A stretch of DNA of 64,000 nt from Minisyncoccota bacterium (GCA_041651415.1 JBAZJH010000001.1:11374-75373); one strand, 5' to 3'; positions 137-64,000 are shown, counted from the stretch's first letter. Notes: generated from the sequence alone by a model not told the origin. Numbers and translations are program-made.

Positions 137-1456
137 TTGCCGGTATTTTTGATTTTGGTTTTTATGTTCAGTTCGGTTTACGCGCCAACCAGCCAGACAA
201 TTTTCGCGGCGGAAAATGAAGAAGAGAGGGCTAAACTGGAGGCGGAGCTTCAGGAGCTTGAAAAACAGATAGCGGAATACGAAGCGACAGTGGAAGGATA
301 CCGGAGACAAGGAACGACTTTGAAGGATGAGATAAAAAGAATAGAAGCAAATATTGCCAAGCTGAATTTACAGGTGAAACAGACAACTTTGTCTTTAGAC
401 AGATTAAATTCCGATATTAAAAAAACGGCCAATAAAATAACGGAAACGGAAAGTTCCATAGATTTAAATAAAAAGAATTTGGCGGAGATATTGCAGAATA
501 TTCACGAAGCGGAAGGGACGGGACTGGTGGAGATTTTGCTTCGCAACCAGGATATGTCCAACTTTTTTGACGACGTGAACAGCGTGATGCTGGTGCAGGA
601 AGGATTAAAAAATTCTCTGCAAAAAATAGTCGGTTTACGGAATGACTTGATAGACCAGAAAGAAACATTGGCGCTTGAGAAAAACGACGTGGAGGCGCTG
701 AGAAAATATCAAGATTCGCAAAGACAGGCGGTGGTAGCCACAAAAGCGGAAAAAAACGAACTTTTGACGGTGACTAAAGGAAAAGAGTCGGAATATCAGG
801 AGCTTTTGAAAAAAACCAAACAAACGGCGGCGGAAATCAGAAGCAGAATCTTCCATTTGCTGGGCGGAGGAGAATTAACTTTTGAGGAAGCGTATAAACT
901 GGCAAAATTCGCGGAGGATGCAACGGGGATAAAAGCGGCTTTTATTTTGTCGGTTTTAGACCAAGAATCGGCGCTCGGAAAAAACGTGGGGAATTGCACA
1001 TATCAAACGGCAATGCATCCGACGAGAGATTTGCCCGCATTTTTAGAAATAACAAAAGAACTTGGAATAGACCCGAATTCGGTTAAAGTTTCCTGTCCGA
1101 TAGTTTCCGACGGAGCTTACGGAGGAGCGATGGGTCCGGCGCAGTTTATTCCTTCCACTTGGAATTTATATAAAGAGGGAATCGCAAAAATAACGGGAAA
1201 TAATCCTCCATCGCCATGGAGAAACGAAGACGCGTTCCTTGCAACAGCTTTGTATTTGAAAGAGGCCTATTATTCTTCTTCATGCAAAAACTACGCAACA
1301 CAAATTCCAAGCCAAGCGGACACTTTGTTGACAAGGTGTGCGGCGGCCAAATATTACGCGGGGGCAAGGTGGTATACCTACCGCTGGGTTTACGGAGAGC
1401 CAGTAGTACAAAGAGCGATTAGGTTCCAAGCGGATATAGATGTGCTTAACAGTTAA
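137..1456 (+). CDS. Secreted coiled-coil protein with a C-terminal lytic-transglycosylase-like (SLT-like) domain
   Basis: N-terminal hydrophobic signal (MPVFLILVFMFSSVYA). A long heptad-like Glu/Lys-rich region (EAELQELEKQIAEYEA...) follows. The C-terminus carries QESALGKN...GGAMGPAQFIPSTW, which resembles the ES...GLMQ..P.T catalytic region of SLT domains. Confidence 0.5.
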   Translation: MPVFLILVFMFSSVYAPTSQTIFAAENEEERAKLEAELQELEKQIAEYEATVEGYRRQGTTLKDEIKRIEANIAKLNLQVKQTTLSLDRLNSDIKKTANKITETESSIDLNKKNLAEILQNIHEAEGTGLVEILLRNQDMSNFFDDVNSVMLVQEGLKNSLQKIVGLRNDLIDQKETLALEKNDVEALRKYQDSQRQAVVATKAEKNELLTVTKGKESEYQELLKKTKQTAAEIRSRIFHLLGGGELTFEEAYKLAKFAEDATGIKAAFILSVLDQESALGKNVGNCTYQTAMHPTRDLPAFLEITKELGIDPNSVKVSCPIVSDGAYGGAMGPAQFIPSTWNLYKEGIAKITGNNPPSPWRNEDAFLATALYLKEAYYSSSCKNYATQIPSQADTLLTRCAAAKYYAGARWYTYRWVYGEPVVQRAIRFQADIDVLNS

Positions 1457-1497
1457 AATCAGTAAATAGTAAATAGAAATTATTAAATAGTAATTAG

Positions 1498-1875
1498 ATG
1501 AGTGGCAATATAAATAATTTTTACGATTTAAAAGTTTGGAAAGATGCTCATAAAATTATTTTAGAAATTTACAAAGAAACAAAAGATTTTCCTGATAGTG
1601 AAAAGTTTGGGTTAATTAGTCAAATGAGACGTTCAGCTTCTTCGATAACAGCAAATATAGCGGAAGGGTTTGGTAGATATCATTTTAAAGACAAAATAAA
1701 GTTTTATCAGCAAGCGAGAGGTTCGGCTGTGGAATTACAAGACCAAATATTTCTGTCTAAGGATTTGAATTTTATAGCAGAAAATAAAGCTAAAGAGTTA
1801 TTTGGTGATGTTTTAGTAGTTTTGAAAGAGATAAACGGGATAATAAAAAAAACAAAAGAAAGAATAAGTTTATAG
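1498..1875 (+). CDS. Four-helix-bundle protein (the '23S rRNA intervening-sequence protein' family)
   Basis: 125 aa, KVWKDAHKIILEIY...SQMRRSASSITANIAEGFGRYHFKDKIKFYQQARGSAVELQDQ. The characteristic motifs of the four-helix-bundle/S23 family are present. It ends with TAG. Confidence 0.7.
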   Translation: MSGNINNFYDLKVWKDAHKIILEIYKETKDFPDSEKFGLISQMRRSASSITANIAEGFGRYHFKDKIKFYQQARGSAVELQDQIFLSKDLNFIAENKAKELFGDVLVVLKEINGIIKKTKERISL

Positions 1876-1907
1876 TTTGTAATCGGTGATAGGAATAAAA
1901 ATAGAAA

Positions 1908-2633
1908 CTATTTTTTGAAAGCATCCACTATTTTATCAAAGCCGTCGCCGCTTAAGATTTTTTCAATGTTGTGAAATTTTTTTCCGATACGGTGGTCGGT
2001 GATGCGATCTTCCGGAAAATTGTAAGTACGGATTTTTTCGGAGCGTTCCATGGAACCGATTTGTTCACGGCGAAGCTCGGAGATATTACCGACTTCCTGG
2101 CGAACTTTTTCCTCATAAAGTTTGGCGCGAAGAATTTCCAGAGCTTTTTCGCGGTTGGCGGATTGAGAGCGTTCGGCGCGGGAAGAAACAACAAGGCCGG
2201 TCGGCTTATGAAGAAGGCGAACAGCCGTTTCCACTTTATTGACGTTCTGCCCGCCCGGACCGCCGGCGCGAGAAAAAGTGACTTCCAAGTCACTTTCTTT
2301 GATATCTAAATCTTTTGCTTCCATAACCGGAAGAACGGCCACGGAGGCGGTGGAGGTGTGAACCCGGCCGGCTTTTTCGGTAGAAGGAACGCGCTGAACG
2401 CGGTGAACTCCGGATTCGTTTTTAAATTCATCATAAACGCCAAGGCCGTTTATTTCGGCGGAGATGGATTTGTATCCGCCGAGAGTGCCGGGGTTGGAAT
2501 CAAGAAAAATAAATTTCCATCCTTTTTTTTCGGAGTAGCGCTGATACATGCGAACGAGATCGCCGGCAAAAAGAGACGCTTCGTCTCCGCCAGCTCCTCC
2601 TCTTATTTCCAAGATTACTTTATTTGGGACCAT
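1908..2633 (-). CDS. prfA: Peptide chain release factor 1, N-terminally truncated form (domains 2-4 only)
   Basis: PST tripeptide anticodon motif ([14 protein letters not shown]). GGQ motif ([23 protein letters not shown]). Only 241 aa. An in-frame TAA lies two codons upstream of the first Met, so no N-terminal domain can be added. Confidence 0.7.
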
Positions 2634-2732
2634 TATCTGTTAAATTACCAATTAAAAGAGATTAATAAAATAGATTTCCGTCTGCCGTCTGACAGTGGCG
2701 GAGGCGGGCAGAGAATGACAAAAAAAACGGGG

Positions 2733-3005
2733 TTATTTTTTGGAAGCGGTTTTTTTGGTTTTCTTTTCCGCTTTTTTAGCGCGCTTATTTTTAACCTCGG
2801 AGGCGGCTTTCAGTTTTCTTGTTCTGAATTTTTCCACGCGGCCGGCGGTGTCAACAATCTTTTCTTTGCCGGTATAAAAAGGGTGGCAGTTGGAGCAAAT
2901 TTCGACGGTTATTTCCGGACGAGAAGCTCCCATAGAAAACTTGGCGCCGCAAGCGCATTTTACTTTAGCGTTTGGAAAGTAGTTAGGATGAATATTTTTT
3001 TTCAT
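2733..3005 (-). CDS. rpmE: 50S ribosomal protein L31
   Basis: [11 protein letters not shown]...CACGAKF...[10 protein letters not shown], the typical L31 zinc-ribbon pattern, with a basic C-terminal tail. Confidence 0.85.
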
Positions 3006-3242
3006 ATTATTTTTTTAATTTTTGAATATAAGTTTAGGTTAATGTTGCTCCGATATAATCGGAGTCCTCAATTTCTTGATCAAATCGTAGATTTGAAAGA
3101 AATTGGGAGATAAATATCTTTTTTCATATGCGGTTCAGTATAAGATAAAAAATGTTTTTTGGCAATAGGAGGAGAGAGGGTAATAATTAATTACTTATTT
3201 AAGTGATTTGTTTCCGGTGTTTTTTTAAGCCTGTTTTATATG

Positions 3243-59496: not shown

Positions 59497-60648
59497 TTAT
59501 CTTTCAGACCAGAGTTTCTTTTGAATAAGGTCGGCAATAGTTCCTAATGAAAGCAGGAATATCAGGAAGCCGATTATCCAGCCGATAAAGGGAATAATGA
59601 CTATTACGGCAAGGAGAATGGAGCCGATAATGATGTTTTTCCAAGTGACAACAGCTGTGCTTGATTTATAAACTAACTGACTAATCCAAGCTCCAAAGAT
59701 GATATTAGTGTAAATGCAGGAAATAAAGAGAAGGAGAACGTAAGAGAGAAGAGCTAAAAGTCCGAGCGGGATGCCGAGAACGGTTATAAATAACAGAATA
59801 AAGGCGGCAGGGATGACTATGAGAGCAACAAATCCTTTACCGATTAAACGGAGCGGGTTTTGAGTGGCGTTTTTGGATACAGAATTAGAAAATTCTTTAA
59901 ATAATAAGAATAAAATAAGAGCAGATATTATGAAAGCGAGAAGCTTATAAATAGTGAAAATGCCAATAAAGGCAAAGAAAAAGCTTTTAGCTTTTTGAGC
60001 ATCCACTTTAGGGAGAGCGATTTCGGTGAAAGTGGTTTTGCCGGAGATAACGGCGCCTTCTTCAATTTTTAAAGATTCAGCGGAAGAGGCGCTATATTCC
60101 AGATTGCCATCAATGACGGCGTTCTCGCCGATGGTTATTTTTTCGTCTGCTTTAACGACGACATTGCCTTTGATGTGTCCGTTGATATTGATGACTCCGC
60201 CGGCAATTTTAGCATTGCCGCCAATATTGCCATTAACAGCGACAAGTCCGCCGGCAGAAACGAGGTCTCCTGCAACCGAAGTTCCGGAAGAGACATTGAC
60301 TGAACCGCCGATAACAATAAGTTCGCCACCGACATTGTTAGAGATTAAAACATTACCGCCAACGATGCGGGTGTCGTCGCCGGAGCTTCCGAGAACAGAG
60401 ATTGAACCGCCAAGGGCGTTGATGTCGTCAGAGATATTTTCAGAGATAATGACATTGCCTCCGGCGGTGAAAAGGTCGCCAGAGATGACGCTATCGATTG
60501 AGACATTGCCTCCAGCGGCGTAAAGATTATCCGCGATGGGGTTTTTAACAGAAACTTCTTCGCCGGCTTTTAAAGTGGCGCCAAAGGCGAGAGTTGGCGC
60601 AAGTATAGCGACGGATGTTAATAACGCAAAGAACTTGTTTATCTTCAT
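59497..60648 (-). CDS. Bactofilin-like (polymer-forming cytoskeletal repeat) protein with a C-terminal polytopic membrane domain
   Basis: Signal peptide. About 10 repeats of ..GGNV.I..S..SGDL.. (AAGGNVSIDSVISGDLFTAGGNVIISENISDDINALGGSISV...), typical of the bactofilin beta-helix. Four TM helices at the C-terminus. Confidence 0.55.
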   Translation of the reverse strand: MKINKFFALLTSVAILAPTLAFGATLKAGEEVSVKNPIADNLYAAGGNVSIDSVISGDLFTAGGNVIISENISDDINALGGSISVLGSSGDDTRIVGGNVLISNNVGGELIVIGGSVNVSSGTSVAGDLVSAGGLVAVNGNIGGNAKIAGGVININGHIKGNVVVKADEKITIGENAVIDGNLEYSASSAESLKIEEGAVISGKTTFTEIALPKVDAQKAKSFFFAFIGIFTIYKLLAFIISALILFLLFKEFSNSVSKNATQNPLRLIGKGFVALIVIPAAFILLFITVLGIPLGLLALLSYVLLLFISCIYTNIIFGAWISQLVYKSSTAVVTWKNIIIGSILLAVIVIIPFIGWIIGFLIFLLSLGTIADLIQKKLWSER

Positions 60649-60910
60649 GATTTATGAATATTTAATTTTAAAATAAAGCTTTCTTATAATGTTTAATAAT
60701 AATCTTTTTGTTGTTTCTTATCAATTATATTGTATTTTGCGGCAGAATTTTTAATTGCTTAATTTCGGTTTTTTTGATATAACGATGGTATATAAATGCG
60801 TCAAAAAATGGTTAGCGGGCTAGTGGCGGAATTTCTCTCTTTCAACTCCTTCCTTCTGTCACGCTCTCACTTGAGCTTCAATTTTTTGGAATTATTCCGT
60901 AATAGGATAT

Positions 60911-61150
60911 ATGATACAAACAAGTATGAGTAAGTTAGTTTACTCAAAAGACTACAAAGCCATCATAGAATGCCTAAAAACGGCATGTATTGAGGCCGAT
61001 TTATCCCAACAGGTAAGAGTGGCCGATAAATTTGGTAAGCCACAGTTCTATATCTCAAAAATAGAATTCGGAGAAAGACGGCTTGATGTGGCTGAAATGA
61101 AAAAGTTTCCGGCTATTTATAAAAAGCCAGTTGATTTTTTTCTAAAATAA
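60911..61150 (+). CDS. Small HTH-XRE-family protein, a candidate R-M controller (C) protein
   Basis: 79 aa. ...DLSQQVRVADKFGKPQFYISKIEFGERRLDVAEMKKFPAIY matches the XRE helix-turn-helix (..ISRIERGER.PSLETLLKLAKAL). Its stop TAA at 61148-61150 is followed by the next ATG at 61152. Confidence 0.5.
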   Translation: MIQTSMSKLVYSKDYKAIIECLKTACIEADLSQQVRVADKFGKPQFYISKIEFGERRLDVAEMKKFPAIYKKPVDFFLK

Positions 61151-61151
61151 T

Positions 61152-62126
61152 ATGCCAAGGCATTCTTCTACAGAAATTAATTATCAGAATTTAATTACCC
61201 AATATCCTTGGGTAGTTGAACGAGAGCAAAACTGCATTATAAGTCCAGACAGCGACGGACTTCTCTGTGGCCTACTAATGTCTCATTATCTTGGATGGCA
61301 AATAAGAGGATTTTATGATGGAAAGGTTTTTGCGGTTGAAGACGGAATAAATCCGAAAGATTGCATTTTTTTAGATATGGAAATTTTCCGCTCCGATATA
61401 CGAAGTGTCGGCCAACATATGGTTATGTATGATAAGGATGATCTGCCTCCAAATTGGAGCAATTTTCAGAAATGTATTGCGGCAAACAATTTAAGAAATT
61501 ATGATTTCAAAAATGATTTTAAGTTAAAGTACCCACTAGGAACAGTTCATATGTTGTTGTCAATTTTGGGGCAAAACCAAACCATGGCGATTCCCAAAAG
61601 CGCAGTAGCGCCACTTCTTTACACTGACGGAACATTTAAAAATCAGTTTAATTATCCTGAAAATTGCTTGAGTTGGTTAGATTTTTTGGGCGCAAATGAT
61701 GTAAATAATCCTCTACAAAAAATATTTTTAGATAGACATTATTCGACGTATGAGTTGATGAATGAACTAAAAGATTTGTTTGCAGAAATCAATACAATAG
61801 GTGGCGGAAAGCGTGGCGGTGACAAAATTAAAATATCTGACTCAAGGGGTAATATTGTAAACATTGACTCGCGAACGCGCTTGTTAAAACCAGCAACCAA
61901 AGCACAGGCAGAGGAATTTTTAAGAATGCTTGCAAATAAAACGGGATGGGATTTTATGCCCACCCATTGGTCATGGGGTCCTTATCAAACGATTCGGTTT
62001 AGAAAGGGTAGTGTAAAACCGGGTAAGGCGCGGTATAACGCACTTCTTGCTCAAAATCCGATATCGCTCGCGATTATCAGCCGTAACAGTATTGAATATA
62101 CTATAGACGGCAACAGAGTTTTCTAA
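61152..62126 (+). CDS. Hypothetical protein, a candidate restriction endonuclease partner translationally coupled to the C-protein gene
   Basis: 324 aa with no recognisable family, as is typical of type II REases. Possible PD..(D/E)xK-like residues (ISPDSDG...FLDMEIFR). Convergent with the methyltransferase gene, with a 4-nt overlap of stops. Confidence 0.3.
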   Translation: MPRHSSTEINYQNLITQYPWVVEREQNCIISPDSDGLLCGLLMSHYLGWQIRGFYDGKVFAVEDGINPKDCIFLDMEIFRSDIRSVGQHMVMYDKDDLPPNWSNFQKCIAANNLRNYDFKNDFKLKYPLGTVHMLLSILGQNQTMAIPKSAVAPLLYTDGTFKNQFNYPENCLSWLDFLGANDVNNPLQKIFLDRHYSTYELMNELKDLFAEINTIGGGKRGGDKIKISDSRGNIVNIDSRTRLLKPATKAQAEEFLRMLANKTGWDFMPTHWSWGPYQTIRFRKGSVKPGKARYNALLAQNPISLAIISRNSIEYTIDGNRVF

Positions 62127-63577
62127 AGTAACTTGTTTTGTGCTACTTGCACGCACTCTTCTTTCATGCGTTTTTCTGCGATTGCGCAGTATTCGGGGGC
62201 AAGATCAATGCCGATGTATTTATAACCCAGGTTTTTTGCAGCAACGGTTGTAGTTCCACTTCCGACAAAGGGGTCAAGAACAACTCCATCTTTTGGCGCA
62301 AAGCAGCTTATAAAATCATACGGAAGCTGATTCGGAAAAGTGGCGGGGTGTTGATGCTTAAGACGGCTTCCGTCGCCGGCCGTAAGATATTCCCAAATTG
62401 TACCGCGACACTTCATCGGATTGATTTTGATTGAACGAGTTGCAATTCGAATACCATTCGTAAGACGAGTGCCGCCACCAGTCATCGTTTTTCCGCCATG
62501 TTTAGATGGAATTTTTAAATGTTCTTTATTGAAATGCTGAGGTCTCTCGCCCTTTAAAAAAATAGGAATATATTCGTGATCTACACGAAAACGTTTATTC
62601 CACCAAGCTCCCTCTGCTCCATATTTTCGGTAAATTACTGTCTCAAAGAGTTTGAAGCCGAAGCTATCGCACCAGTCAATAATAGTTTTGAAAGAAGTTA
62701 AGGATTTGCCGAAGTTTTTTGTCTGATCTTGAATAACCATAACGGCCACTCCGCCATCCTTGAGGATGCGATGTATCTCTTTTCCTGCAGAATGTAAATC
62801 AAGAGAAAATCCTTTGTAGTCGCGGACAGCGTCGTATGGCGGAGAAGTAACTACAATATCAATCGAATTCGATGGAAATTTTTTCATTACTTCTATTGCA
62901 TCTCCACGAATAATTTTATTAACTGGCAATTCCTTATATTTTTCTTGCTTCTTAAATTTCGGAAGTTGGATTCCCGCAGCGCCTTCTTCGCGAATAACAT
63001 CCAGTACAATCCCTTGTACTGATACATCTTGTCTATTTCTAAAGATAAGTGGCTCCATAGTTTTATTGGCGGGTTGTAACCGAATATGTCCCCTCTCTTT
63101 ATAAAATTTCTTTAGTGTGGCTTCGTGATTATCTATGAGCGCAACTACTTTTTGTCCATTTTCCGCCGTTTCCTGTTGTTTGACTAGAACAATGTCTCCG
63201 TCGTTGATATTTTCATCAATCATACTTTCACCGACAACGCGGAGAGCGTAAACTTTCGCAGATGGGGGAATTTTGGATTTTGGAACAGCGATTGTTTCTT
63301 TGTTTTGAATCGCTTCTATCGGTTGCCCGGCGGCAATAGTACCAAGCAGAGGAATTTTTATCATTGTTTCTCTGCTGGTTGCTTCAATGGCGCGAGGGTG
63401 GTTTTCTTTTTTGGAAAGTAGCCCTAAATTTTGAAGTTTGGAGACATGGAAATGAGCAGTTGAAACAGATGCGAGTTTAAATTTCTTTCGAATCTCATCA
63501 AGAGAGGGAGCATATCCCTTTCGTTTCTGATAATTAGTTATAAAATCTAGGACTTGCTTTTGCTTTTTTGTCACCAT
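62123..63577 (-). CDS. Full-length LexA repressor fused in one ORF to a beta-class N4-cytosine/N6-adenine DNA methyltransferase
   Basis: Residues 1-~200 align to LexA throughout: wHTH KKQKQVLDFITNYQKRKGYAPSLDEIRKKF...HFHVSKLQNLGLL, cleavage site IPLLGTIAAGQP (Ala-Gly), Ser motif LRVVGESMIDENINDGDIVLV, Lys motif VVALIDNHEATLKKF. The remainder carries MTase motif IV IVVTSPPYD and motif I LDPFVGSGTT in beta-class order, with an ~20-aa linker and no stop or frameshift. Confidence 0.7.
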   Translation of the reverse strand: MVTKKQKQVLDFITNYQKRKGYAPSLDEIRKKFKLASVSTAHFHVSKLQNLGLLSKKENHPRAIEATSRETMIKIPLLGTIAAGQPIEAIQNKETIAVPKSKIPPSAKVYALRVVGESMIDENINDGDIVLVKQQETAENGQKVVALIDNHEATLKKFYKERGHIRLQPANKTMEPLIFRNRQDVSVQGIVLDVIREEGAAGIQLPKFKKQEKYKELPVNKIIRGDAIEVMKKFPSNSIDIVVTSPPYDAVRDYKGFSLDLHSAGKEIHRILKDGGVAVMVIQDQTKNFGKSLTSFKTIIDWCDSFGFKLFETVIYRKYGAEGAWWNKRFRVDHEYIPIFLKGERPQHFNKEHLKIPSKHGGKTMTGGGTRLTNGIRIATRSIKINPMKCRGTIWEYLTAGDGSRLKHQHPATFPNQLPYDFISCFAPKDGVVLDPFVGSGTTTVAAKNLGYKYIGIDLAPEYCAIAEKRMKEECVQVAQNKLL

Positions 63578-64000
63578 ATTGATATTATAGAAAATAAATA
63601 GAAAGTATAAAAGTACTAGTTATCCCCATGAAAGAAAAACTAGAAATATTTCAAATACTTCGAGAATTAAAAGGATTGGAATGGCCATCGAGGTGGGGCG
63701 GCATTCTCTATGCTTTAGTTATTTTTCTGCTTTCTTATGCGGTTATAATTGTTTTTGCTAATACTGGCGTTGTTTTCAGTCATTATTGGATAATTAGTAT
63801 CTTTCTTGGCTTACAATTTATCCATGCGATTGCTTGGTTTATAAAGCGAAATTTTTTTTATGATTCAAGTACATTAACTGTCGCTTTTGCAGTTACTACA
63901 GAAGAAACTTCACAAAAGTACTATAAAGAAATCAAAAAAAAATTTAGAGAACAAGTTGTTAGTTATAAATTGCAGGATGATATAAAGATTAAAGAACTTC

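Follow-up and report, generated by a model that had tools for sequence, protein, structure and literature searches.

The DNA analyzed in this work is a stretch of 64,000 nucleotides from a Minisyncoccota bacterium (GCA_041651415.1, JBAZJH010000001.1:11374-75373), and the whole of it is referred to here as the window. Toward its 3'-end there is a module of three open reading frames (ORFs). The longest of these encodes a protein of 484 residues that is predicted to be a complete LexA repressor fused at its C-terminus to a DNA methyltransferase (MTase). Two ORFs on the opposite strand, encoding a 79-residue helix-turn-helix (HTH) protein of the XRE type and a 324-residue protein, form a unit that converges on the fusion gene, and all three ORFs are exactly as stated in a preliminary description of this DNA. 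The three genes are denoted C (controller, the XRE gene), R (the candidate restriction endonuclease, REase), and M (the MTase). The stop codon of the C gene is 1 nt before the start of the R candidate, and the 3'-ends of the convergent 324- and 484-residue ORFs overlap by 4 nt. No convincing terminator was found between these two genes, and a scan of the module and its surroundings with Rfam returned no structured RNA at E ≤ 1. The coordinates of the individual features are collected in Table 1.

When the window was aligned with the closest loci using blastn, the alignment was found to begin at position 60884 and to stop at approximately 63628. Using tblastx against 82 other loci, homology was found only within positions ~60800-63630, with none in the flanks. 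The module is a discrete element that occurs in unrelated, non-syntenic genomic contexts. The preliminary description had considered the codon usage of this region to be unlike that of the core genes and consistent with acquisition. The difference in codon usage was not borne out. The GC content of the module is 0.387, compared with 0.397 for the window, and the GC content at third codon positions is 0.33-0.34, compared with 0.381 ± 0.046 for the other long ORFs; on these figures, atypical composition was rejected as evidence of acquisition. By composition, the module does not stand out as foreign.

Table 1. Features of the R-M module, numbered from the first nucleotide of the window
Feature	Position	Strand	Basis and remarks
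Whole conserved module, C(XRE)-R converging on LexA-M, with promoter	60884..63628	.	blastn/tblastx homology limits; ~2.75 kb
C-box-like region and C-R operon promoter (TTGGAATTATTCCGTAATAGGATATATG)	60884..60925	+	family consensus ATCCCATTTTGGGATTATACCACAATAGGATATAT, from which it has partly diverged
C (controller, XRE-HTH) gene, 79 aa	60911..61150	+	true start probably ATG 60926; appears degenerate
Candidate restriction endonuclease (R), 324 aa, family-less, DHH-like N-terminal fold	61152..62126	+	predicted structure, slot position
LexA-S24-MTase fusion gene, 484 aa	62123..63577	-	ORF call, Pfam, NCBIfam, orthologues, motifs
LexA winged-HTH (wHTH) DNA-binding domain, aa 1-65	63383..63577	-	Pfam LexA_DNA_bind, aa 3-63
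Codons of the predicted scissile Ala83-Gly84 bond	63326..63331	-	IAAGQP, aa 81-86; AAG/SAG in 66/66 fusions
S24 peptidase/dimerization domain, aa 76-191	63005..63352	-	Ser118 63224-63226; Lys156 63110-63112; Pfam Peptidase_S24
Beta-class DNA methyltransferase domain, aa ~219-484	62126..62923	-	SPPY 62834-62845; FxGxG 62249-62275; Pfam N6_N4_Mtase
Sigma-70-like promoter of the fusion gene	63584..63611	-	-35 TTTATA 63606-63611; -10 TATAAT 63584-63589; conserved across loci
Putative LexA operator, direct repeat TTTCTAT-TTAT-TTTCTAT, 11-bp period	63587..63604	-	in promoter spacer, overlaps -10 box
DnaA-box-like 9-mer TGGGGATAA	63620..63628	-	family consensus TGTGGATAA = reverse complement of TTATCCACA

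The fusion protein and its relatives

Three domains were identified by Pfam in a single reading frame of the 484-residue protein: LexA_DNA_bind (PF01726; residues 3-63, E = 2e-13, 50 bits), Peptidase_S24 (PF00717; residues 76-191, E = 7e-31, 107 bits), and N6_N4_Mtase (residues 239-469, E = 2e-38). The protein scores 185 bits against the NCBIfam equivalog model for lexA (TIGR00498), for which the cut-off is 111. With its wHTH and S24 domains above the curated cut-offs, and with the Ala-Gly bond and the Ser/Lys dyad of the motifs IAAGQP (residues 81-86), GESM (116-119), and TLKKF (154-158) at the canonical spacing, the protein has the features by which a LexA is recognized in sequence. The C-terminal half contains TSPPY (residues 244-248) and DPFVGSGTT (435-443), corresponding to the (S/D)PP(Y/F) and S-adenosylmethionine FxGxG motifs of the MTases of Type II restriction-modification (R-M) systems. 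It matches the PADLOC model MTase_II with an E-value of 2e-42, and the nearest solved structures are TTHA0409-like 2zie, M.PvuII N4C, and N4CMT. Motif IV precedes motif I and contains SPPY rather than DPPY, as in the beta-class N4-cytosine MTases, which is compatible with membership in that group; the MTase of one sister locus (L078) has DPPF in the motif IV position.

With each GTDB species represented by one genome, relatives were found in 250 genomes, and 66 complete fusion ORFs, spanning 50-95% identity, were examined for the functional residues. The Ala-Gly pair, the serine of G-x-S-M, and the lysine of TLK are retained in 66 of 66, and SPPY in 65. The copy in the window deviates from the family at 3 of 226 conserved columns, all conservatively, and was judged to be intact. 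The preliminary description had placed a LexA and a beta-class MTase, with all of the residues for self-cleavage, in one polypeptide. The domain order, the motifs, the TIGR00498 score, and the alignment of the Ser/Lys dyad across the family all agree with that claim.

The exact 484-residue protein is on record from a 298-kb contig of 'Candidatus Paceibacterota'. The best 120 matches, from at least 120 independent clusters, are 72-100% identical to it; all are single ORFs of ~480 residues with the same three domains, and they are spread over many candidate phyla of the Parcubacteria/Paceibacteria. It is practically impossible that an assembly error or a frameshift has joined two genes, which for a metagenome-assembled genome would be a possibility only a priori, because the single-ORF architecture recurs across these clusters and the 66 complete ORFs from GTDB genomes; separate projects have assembled it independently hundreds of times. 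The artefact was rejected on this basis, and the fusion stands as a real single ORF, as first described. The further claim that it lies outside any described family holds in one respect. No published description was found in a full-text literature search and in broad reviews of R-M systems, a coverage that did not extend to a 2017 study of the SOS response in Patescibacteria (doi 10.1111/1462-2920.13826). The proteins do, however, constitute a populous family of the Patescibacteria, for which the automatic name at NCBI is 'transcriptional repressor LexA', and the present results show the true nature of this annotation in hundreds of genomes of the candidate phyla radiation.

The 50,697 phage records and the 72,556 plasmid records that were searched contain no full-length fusion, and one of nine matches in IMG/VR is a full-length copy. 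This copy, on a predicted viral contig (L085, positions 700-3130), is a LexA-MTase that is 43% identical to the fusion in the window and is accompanied by a convergent, overlapping ORF of 305 residues. Directly downstream of its -10 box there is an 11-bp-period repeat, AATCGAAA-ATG-AATCGAAA.

The LexA module is not confined to one class of MTase. When 1.84 billion cluster representatives were searched exhaustively, many proteins of 430-890 residues were found to have an N-terminal LexA module, and in 20 of the 20 that were sampled the C-terminal part is a DNA MTase of the N6_N4 (beta), D12 (alpha), N6_Mtase/Eco57I/TaqI_C (gamma), or C5 class. The named members of this sample are from Patescibacteria, Nealsonbacteria, and one Omnitrophota bin. 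One example of each of the other MTase classes was inspected (three loci), and in these a convergent gene begins 2-10 nt past the stop codon of the fusion, or overlaps it; in the D12 example, the convergent gene is found behind a gene for a 73-residue HTH_3 protein.

Some of the loci have defense-type neighbors. A reverse transcriptase-like protein with an HTH partner and a Dcm-Vsr pair are found beside the fusion gene at L003 (7700-11750), AbiEii and HicA are found near it at L220 (500-8250), and NYN and SNase nucleases are also among the neighbors across these regions. These surroundings suggest a defense-island context for the fusion genes at some loci.

Co-variation of the methyltransferase and the convergent gene

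The four parts of the module were compared with 83 loci by tblastn. The LexA half is 80-95% identical among proteins in which it is joined to at least three types of MTase, with identities to the MTase in the window of ~66-95%, 36-40%, and 29%, respectively. Even with MTase identities as low as 29-40%, that of the LexA half amounts to 85-95%. In the protein alignment, near identity extends to '...VLDVIREE' (residue ~197) and is followed by a linker of ~20 residues and then by divergent MTases. At the loci of types B and C, the DNA homology runs from the promoter through LexA and the linker into the MTase, but no further than approximately SPPY (62,804/62,856-63,628), and the C gene on the other side is homologous at the protein level. 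Since LexA and C are conserved and the MTases and R genes differ, the module is best described as an exchangeable M/R pair between conserved LexA and C flanks.

The convergent gene co-varies with the MTase. The 324-residue gene is convergent with and abuts nearly every MTase of type A, and it is absent from all of the other types. It also follows type A MTases that are unfused (L061-63, L074, L077, L082, and L083) or that carry a short wHTH only, and it has been lost in L003 and L033. In the other types, the same position is occupied by different genes, for proteins of ~152 (Cys-rich), ~194, ~203, and ~230 residues, and three of these match the PADLOC models for Type II REases (REase_II) with E-values of 1e-20, 3e-46, and 9e-55. 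The architectures of the sister enzymes are His-Me/EndoVII and Hpy99I-like SH3 + beta4alpha2. The position of the 324-residue protein is the R slot, because the sister slots hold recognized REases, each behind the common C gene. The sister modules also bear out the earlier reading of the two plus-strand genes as a C-like gene with an R candidate.

The 324-residue protein has no match in Pfam, NCBIfam, or PADLOC, nor to a known REase family. Its earlier designation as a candidate endonuclease is supported by the slot and by the co-variation with the type of MTase. Its predicted structure is confident, and in this model the N-terminal ~180 residues resemble the DHH-superfamily phosphoesterases and nucleases (RecJ, Cdc45, NrnA, and GdpP). 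There are conserved acidic and histidine residues and no match to a DHH model in Pfam. On the basis of the model, the protein may represent a new REase fold. The copy in the window has 1 deviation in 121 conserved columns and was judged to be intact.

The lack of any family match, the similarity of the modeled fold to the phosphoesterases RecJ, NrnA, and GdpP, and a DnaA-box-like site in the promoter of the fusion gene, which is reminiscent of cell-cycle control, could be taken to mean that the fusion is a solitary (epigenetic or cell-cycle) methylase beside a DHH-type phosphoesterase that is no restriction enzyme. We consider this to be improbable. The 324-residue gene strictly co-occurs, in convergent overlap, with one type of MTase whether the latter is fused or unfused, it is found behind the same C gene in a slot that elsewhere holds recognized REases, and its loss at L003 and L033 is typical of R genes.

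Promoter regions and the controller gene

The hexamers upstream of the fusion gene match the consensus at 10 of 12 positions and are the best promoter-like sequence in the region. Essentially all of the fusion promoters share the box TGTGGATAA(C), a -35-like TTTACA, and a direct repeat with an 11-bp period (TTTCTAT-N4-TTTCTAT) over the spacer and TATAAT. The repeated word varies by lineage (TTTCTAT, TTTCGGG, GCTCGGG, GTTCGGT, or TTTCGAT) at constant phasing, which is what would be expected of a co-evolving repressor and operator. Direct-repeat LexA motifs are documented, for example GTTC-N7-GTTC in the Alphaproteobacteria (PMC8565304), and PMC7739468 cites work that reportedly places the Patescibacteria among the lineages with such motifs. 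In the fusion gene, an MTase with an N-terminal DNA-binding domain is combined with a conserved putative operator in its own promoter, the combination known from the MTases of the SsoII type. The preliminary description had pointed to the two upstream regions of the module as places for an SOS box or a C-box. The promoter of the fusion gene yielded this direct-repeat putative operator, and the region upstream of C yielded a C-box-like dyad that is partly diverged in the window.

The operator is found almost exclusively at the promoters of LexA genes. The 64-kb window contains one perfect copy, at the fusion promoter, and approximately 65 of the 71 matches to the generic repeat in 875 kb of loci are at fusion promoters. 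There were 81 metagenome matches to the operator with the -10 box; 10 of these have the DnaA-like box (8 by an automatic flag and 2 added by eye), all before LexA-like genes or contig ends, and none of the 10 is before a non-LexA gene. In the window, the 875 kb of loci, and the 81 metagenome matches, which do not cover the recA and uvrA promoters of these genomes, no wider regulon than the LexA promoters was found. No gene of the recA or uvrA type was recognizable by motif in the window.

These scans bear on a different role for the fusion, as the global SOS repressor of the cell, with recA and repair genes elsewhere in the genome under its control. In that case it would have captured a methylase, and the link to R-M would be secondary; an R-M system could, for example, become difficult to lose if its antidote were physically joined to a regulator that matters to the cell. 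The score above the LexA equivalog cut-off and the absence of a second LexA or S24 gene within the 64-kb window are consistent with a global role, as is an SOS network of the Patescibacteria with a direct-repeat LexA motif that was reportedly reconstructed in a study cited in PMC7739468 and PMC8565304. However, the near restriction of the operator to the fusion's own promoter and, in metagenomes, to LexA genes speaks against such a role, and so does the presence of the module in unrelated contexts. The operator word would change more easily between lineages if the regulon were tiny, and the LexA half, at 85-95% identity between candidate phyla that are nominally distant, points to horizontal spread more readily than to vertical inheritance. 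A global role is rather unlikely, yet it is to be taken seriously.

TTATCCACA is the consensus of the DnaA box, and TGTGGATAA is its reverse complement. The box is exact in 47 of the 66 promoters and has at most one mismatch in 62, where the background is 0.01 per 120 nt; it precedes the LexA operator by 1-15 nt and can have either orientation. Its conservation suggests that the methylase gene may be under replication-linked control; replication also creates under-methylated DNA. The alternative assignment of the TGTGGATAA box as a half-site for the C protein was rejected, since loci without a C gene have the box as well and its variation does not follow that of the C-box.

Two kinds of relatives separate the regulatory elements from the fusion. 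In the wHTH-only-MTase variants at L069, L073, L075, L050, and L051, a LexA-like wHTH of ~65 residues without an S24 domain is joined to the MTase, and the operator and the box are kept. The pairing of wHTH and operator is therefore the autoregulatory core, to which S24 is an added module. L073 and L050 each contain two wHTH-only-MTase genes in tandem. The closest unfused LexA (P0156) is 65% identical, has intact catalytic residues, and is encoded 15 nt upstream of a methyl-dependent REase of the DpnI family. This LexA-DpnI-like operon (L213, 1020-2551; also L214) has the same box and direct-repeat promoter and no MTase. The pairing of P0156 with an REase under the same promoter ties this LexA lineage to restriction modules as such.

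LexA dimerizes through its C-terminal domain. The S24 domain might therefore serve merely to dimerize the wHTH, and the fusion would then be a dimeric, autoregulated methylase that makes no use of self-cleavage and is not coupled to the SOS response; the wHTH-only variants with the same operator indicate that autoregulation needs no S24. A pure dimerization role would not constrain the cleavage residues, and their retention in all 66 fusions, at 50-95% identity, as well as in the unfused P0156 makes this explanation quite doubtful.

Promoter-like hexamers for the C-R operon are found at 60886..60915. In 30 loci, the region upstream of the XRE gene contains a conserved dyad and repeated GGAT(T)ATA words, in the family pattern ATCCCA-TTT-TGGGAT followed by GGATTATA...GGATATAT, and the words co-vary in a lineage-specific manner. 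Homologues of C (73-79 residues, 45-84% identity) are found directly upstream of five different R genes, and in the other cassette types they overlap the R gene by 4 nt. A small HTH gene abutting an R gene, with a C-box-like dyad and repeat upstream, is the arrangement by which C-regulated R-M systems are recognized in sequence.

In the window, C does not have the appearance of an intact gene. The 79-residue protein matches HTH_3 only weakly (E = 1e-5, 25.9 bits), compared with 59 bits for the copy at the sister locus L048. Four of the 27 columns that are at least 90% conserved are altered non-conservatively, by R26C, L41F, S46F, and a one-residue insertion in the HTH; these changes, and also R21C, S9L, and S53F, affect positions at which all 31 of 31 relatives agree. 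As read by eye from the codons rather than computed, the changes appear to be of the C-to-T type. The C-box and, by eye, a GC-rich stretch upstream of it (~60790-60910) also look diverged, next to intact R and LexA-M genes. At sister loci such as L038, L041, L018, and L015, a conserved GC-rich element, for example CCTCCTTCCGCCACGCCCTCGCTTGGGCTTC ... GGCGGCGGC, is located upstream of the C-box in an AT-rich setting, at the position corresponding to ~60790-60880 of the window; it occurs in two arrangements and has no match in Rfam. Many type A modules have no C gene at all, and C therefore seems to be dispensable, or to be in the process of being lost in this genome.

Proposed regulation and comparison with known systems

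Our explanation is that the region constitutes a self-contained Type II R-M cassette, built on a chassis that is common in the Patescibacteria. The autorepression of the fusion gene is most likely relieved by RecA*-stimulated self-cleavage, which would raise the supply of methylase. Taken jointly, with all of its parts, this explanation is somewhat more probable than its failure.

In the proposed mechanism, the fusion would dimerize via S24, and the wHTH would bind to the direct repeat over its own -10 box, making the synthesis of methylase self-limiting in the manner of the N-terminal regulatory regions of M.SsoII and M.Ecl18kI. RecA filaments on single-stranded DNA (ssDNA) would arise in damage, repair, and recombination, and possibly on invading ssDNA. 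The Ser118/Lys156 dyad would then cut the Ala83-Gly84 bond, and the wHTH would leave the S24-MTase body. It had been suggested in the preliminary description that the DNA-binding or autoregulatory half of the methylase would be removable; this applies to the wHTH of ~83 residues, and not to the whole LexA, as S24 is predicted to stay on the MTase. With the promoter derepressed, the supply of methylase would increase when repair and recombination synthesis makes unmodified sites, and a Type II system would in this way have a hard-wired equivalent of the restriction alleviation that is induced by damage. The R gene may also be damped by an increase in convergent transcription over the overlapping 3'-ends. 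Upon entry into a naive cell, the promoter would be unrepressed and an early burst of methylase would serve establishment, with the C protein delaying R. Homologous flanks for the exchange of M/R specificity cassettes could be provided by the C gene on one side and, on the other, by the sequence encoding LexA, which is highly conserved.

Several points weigh against this explanation. The binding, cleavage, and methylation steps are read here from sequence alone, and the proposal presupposes a fate or an activity for the S24-MTase fragment after cleavage. The scans for the operator, which lacked the recA and uvrA promoters of the same genomes, leave room for a LexA regulon beyond its own promoter. 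The R candidate is without a family, and we know of no precedent for a DHH-like fold among REases. The degenerate appearance of C in the window makes the expression of R in this genome uncertain. In the LexA-DpnI operon, derepression would raise restriction and not protection.

The last of these points leads to an opposite direction of the response, in which RecA*-dependent cleavage would act as an alarm that raises the whole defense module during phage infection or DNA injury, as DNA-damage-responsive regulators do for other defense systems, rather than as self-protective alleviation. Where the LexA and promoter cassette directly precedes a DpnI-family REase with no MTase, derepression can only increase restriction, and the reverse transcriptase-like, Dcm-Vsr, AbiEii, and HicA neighbors at L003 and L220 would be in keeping with an alarm. 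In the fused modules, however, the LexA-controlled promoter drives M, whereas R has a C-controlled promoter without a LexA operator, and more M alone would lower the restriction of incoming DNA. We hold the alarm to be unlikely and prefer the self-protective derepression of M.

A more general proposal can be made only tentatively, and we would not rely on it. The Patescibacteria may possess a modular, 'SOS-wired' R-M chassis, in which LexA is placed on any class of MTase or before methyl-dependent REases, under the control of RecA* and possibly of DnaA, with the LexA and C flanks as recombination arms for the rapid swapping of specificity, and with what would be the first REase on a DHH-like phosphoesterase fold in type A. 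The R/M balance would then be directly under RecA*.

Self-cleaving repressors are familiar from mobile elements. Phage lambda CI and SetR of an integrative and conjugative element are RecA*-sensitive, S24-family repressors, and are separate proteins that control genes for lysis or transfer. The module resembles these systems in that a repressor of the self-cleaving type is carried on a horizontally mobile unit whose own genes it would control, and differs in that the repressor is covalently joined to an enzyme and would control a defense cassette. Compared with a canonical LexA, the fusion has the full set of domains, the Ala-Gly bond and the Ser/Lys dyad, the TIGR00498 equivalog score, a putative operator over its own promoter, and a direct-repeat motif. 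Unlike a canonical LexA, it has a C-terminal MTase of ~280 residues or more and belongs to an R-M cassette of mobile appearance, and the window, the 875 kb of loci, and the metagenome sample yielded no regulon extending past the promoter of the gene itself.

MTases with N-terminal regulators are known from the M.SsoII/M.Ecl18kI type (PMC3978073, PMC2760811). These also have a DNA-binding domain at the N-terminus of a Type II MTase, an operator in the promoter region of the MTase itself, and autoregulation of M, and the wHTH-only-MTase variants are direct analogues of them. The differences are that the regulator in the fusion is a complete LexA with wHTH and S24 domains, that the putative operator is a direct repeat, that any class of MTase can be the partner, and that R, which is divergent and co-regulated in the M.SsoII/M.Ecl18kI systems, is convergent here and has its own C protein. 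The Type II systems controlled by C proteins, such as PvuII and Esp1396I (PMC2175313, PMC3758141), share with the module a small XRE-HTH gene that abuts and is translationally coupled to R and a C-box-like dyad and repeat upstream. In contrast to those systems, a single C protein (70-84% identical) is paired here with at least five R genes that are unrelated to each other, LexA is a second, independent regulator on the MTase, and the C gene in the window looks decayed.

The damage-induced alleviation of restriction by Type I enzymes (EcoKI, ClpXP) depends on the proteolysis of HsdR, and lexA does not repress it (PMC3874165). By analogy, the proposed outcome is the same, a shift of the R/M balance after damage that protects unmodified chromosomal sites, whereas the proposed means here would be the transcriptional derepression of M by a self-cleaving, M-fused LexA.

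R-M systems, C proteins, MTase-borne regulators, and LexA are already known. New, as far as could be established, are the complete LexA of the self-cleaving type as the N-terminal module of an MTase and its generality across classes of MTase, the cassette architecture with conserved flanks, and the dedicated direct-repeat putative operator with its DnaA-like box. If the proposed regulation is correct, this would be the first SOS sensor that is physically part of an R-M enzyme, and there would be a simple molecular route by which damage, repair, or invading ssDNA resets self-protection, which has been understood so far only for Type I systems via ClpXP. The module also offers a natural plug-and-play architecture for the exchange of R-M specificities, an operator with an 11-bp period, a DnaA-like box, and what is probably a new nuclease fold. 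Knowledge of such R-M modules and their regulation would be useful for making the Patescibacteria genetically tractable.

Over the whole window, the 4-bp palindromes GATC (54 observed, 164 expected), GGCC, CGCG, and TCGA are strongly under-represented, which fits a heavy exposure to restriction. An assignment of the target site from this avoidance was rejected, as several 4-mers are avoided and none can be assigned to this system. The adjoining gene, at 59497-60648 on the minus strand, is unrelated to the module; its product of 383 residues has weak beta-solenoid repeats of the bactofilin/FapA kind and, at the C-terminus, a membrane region.

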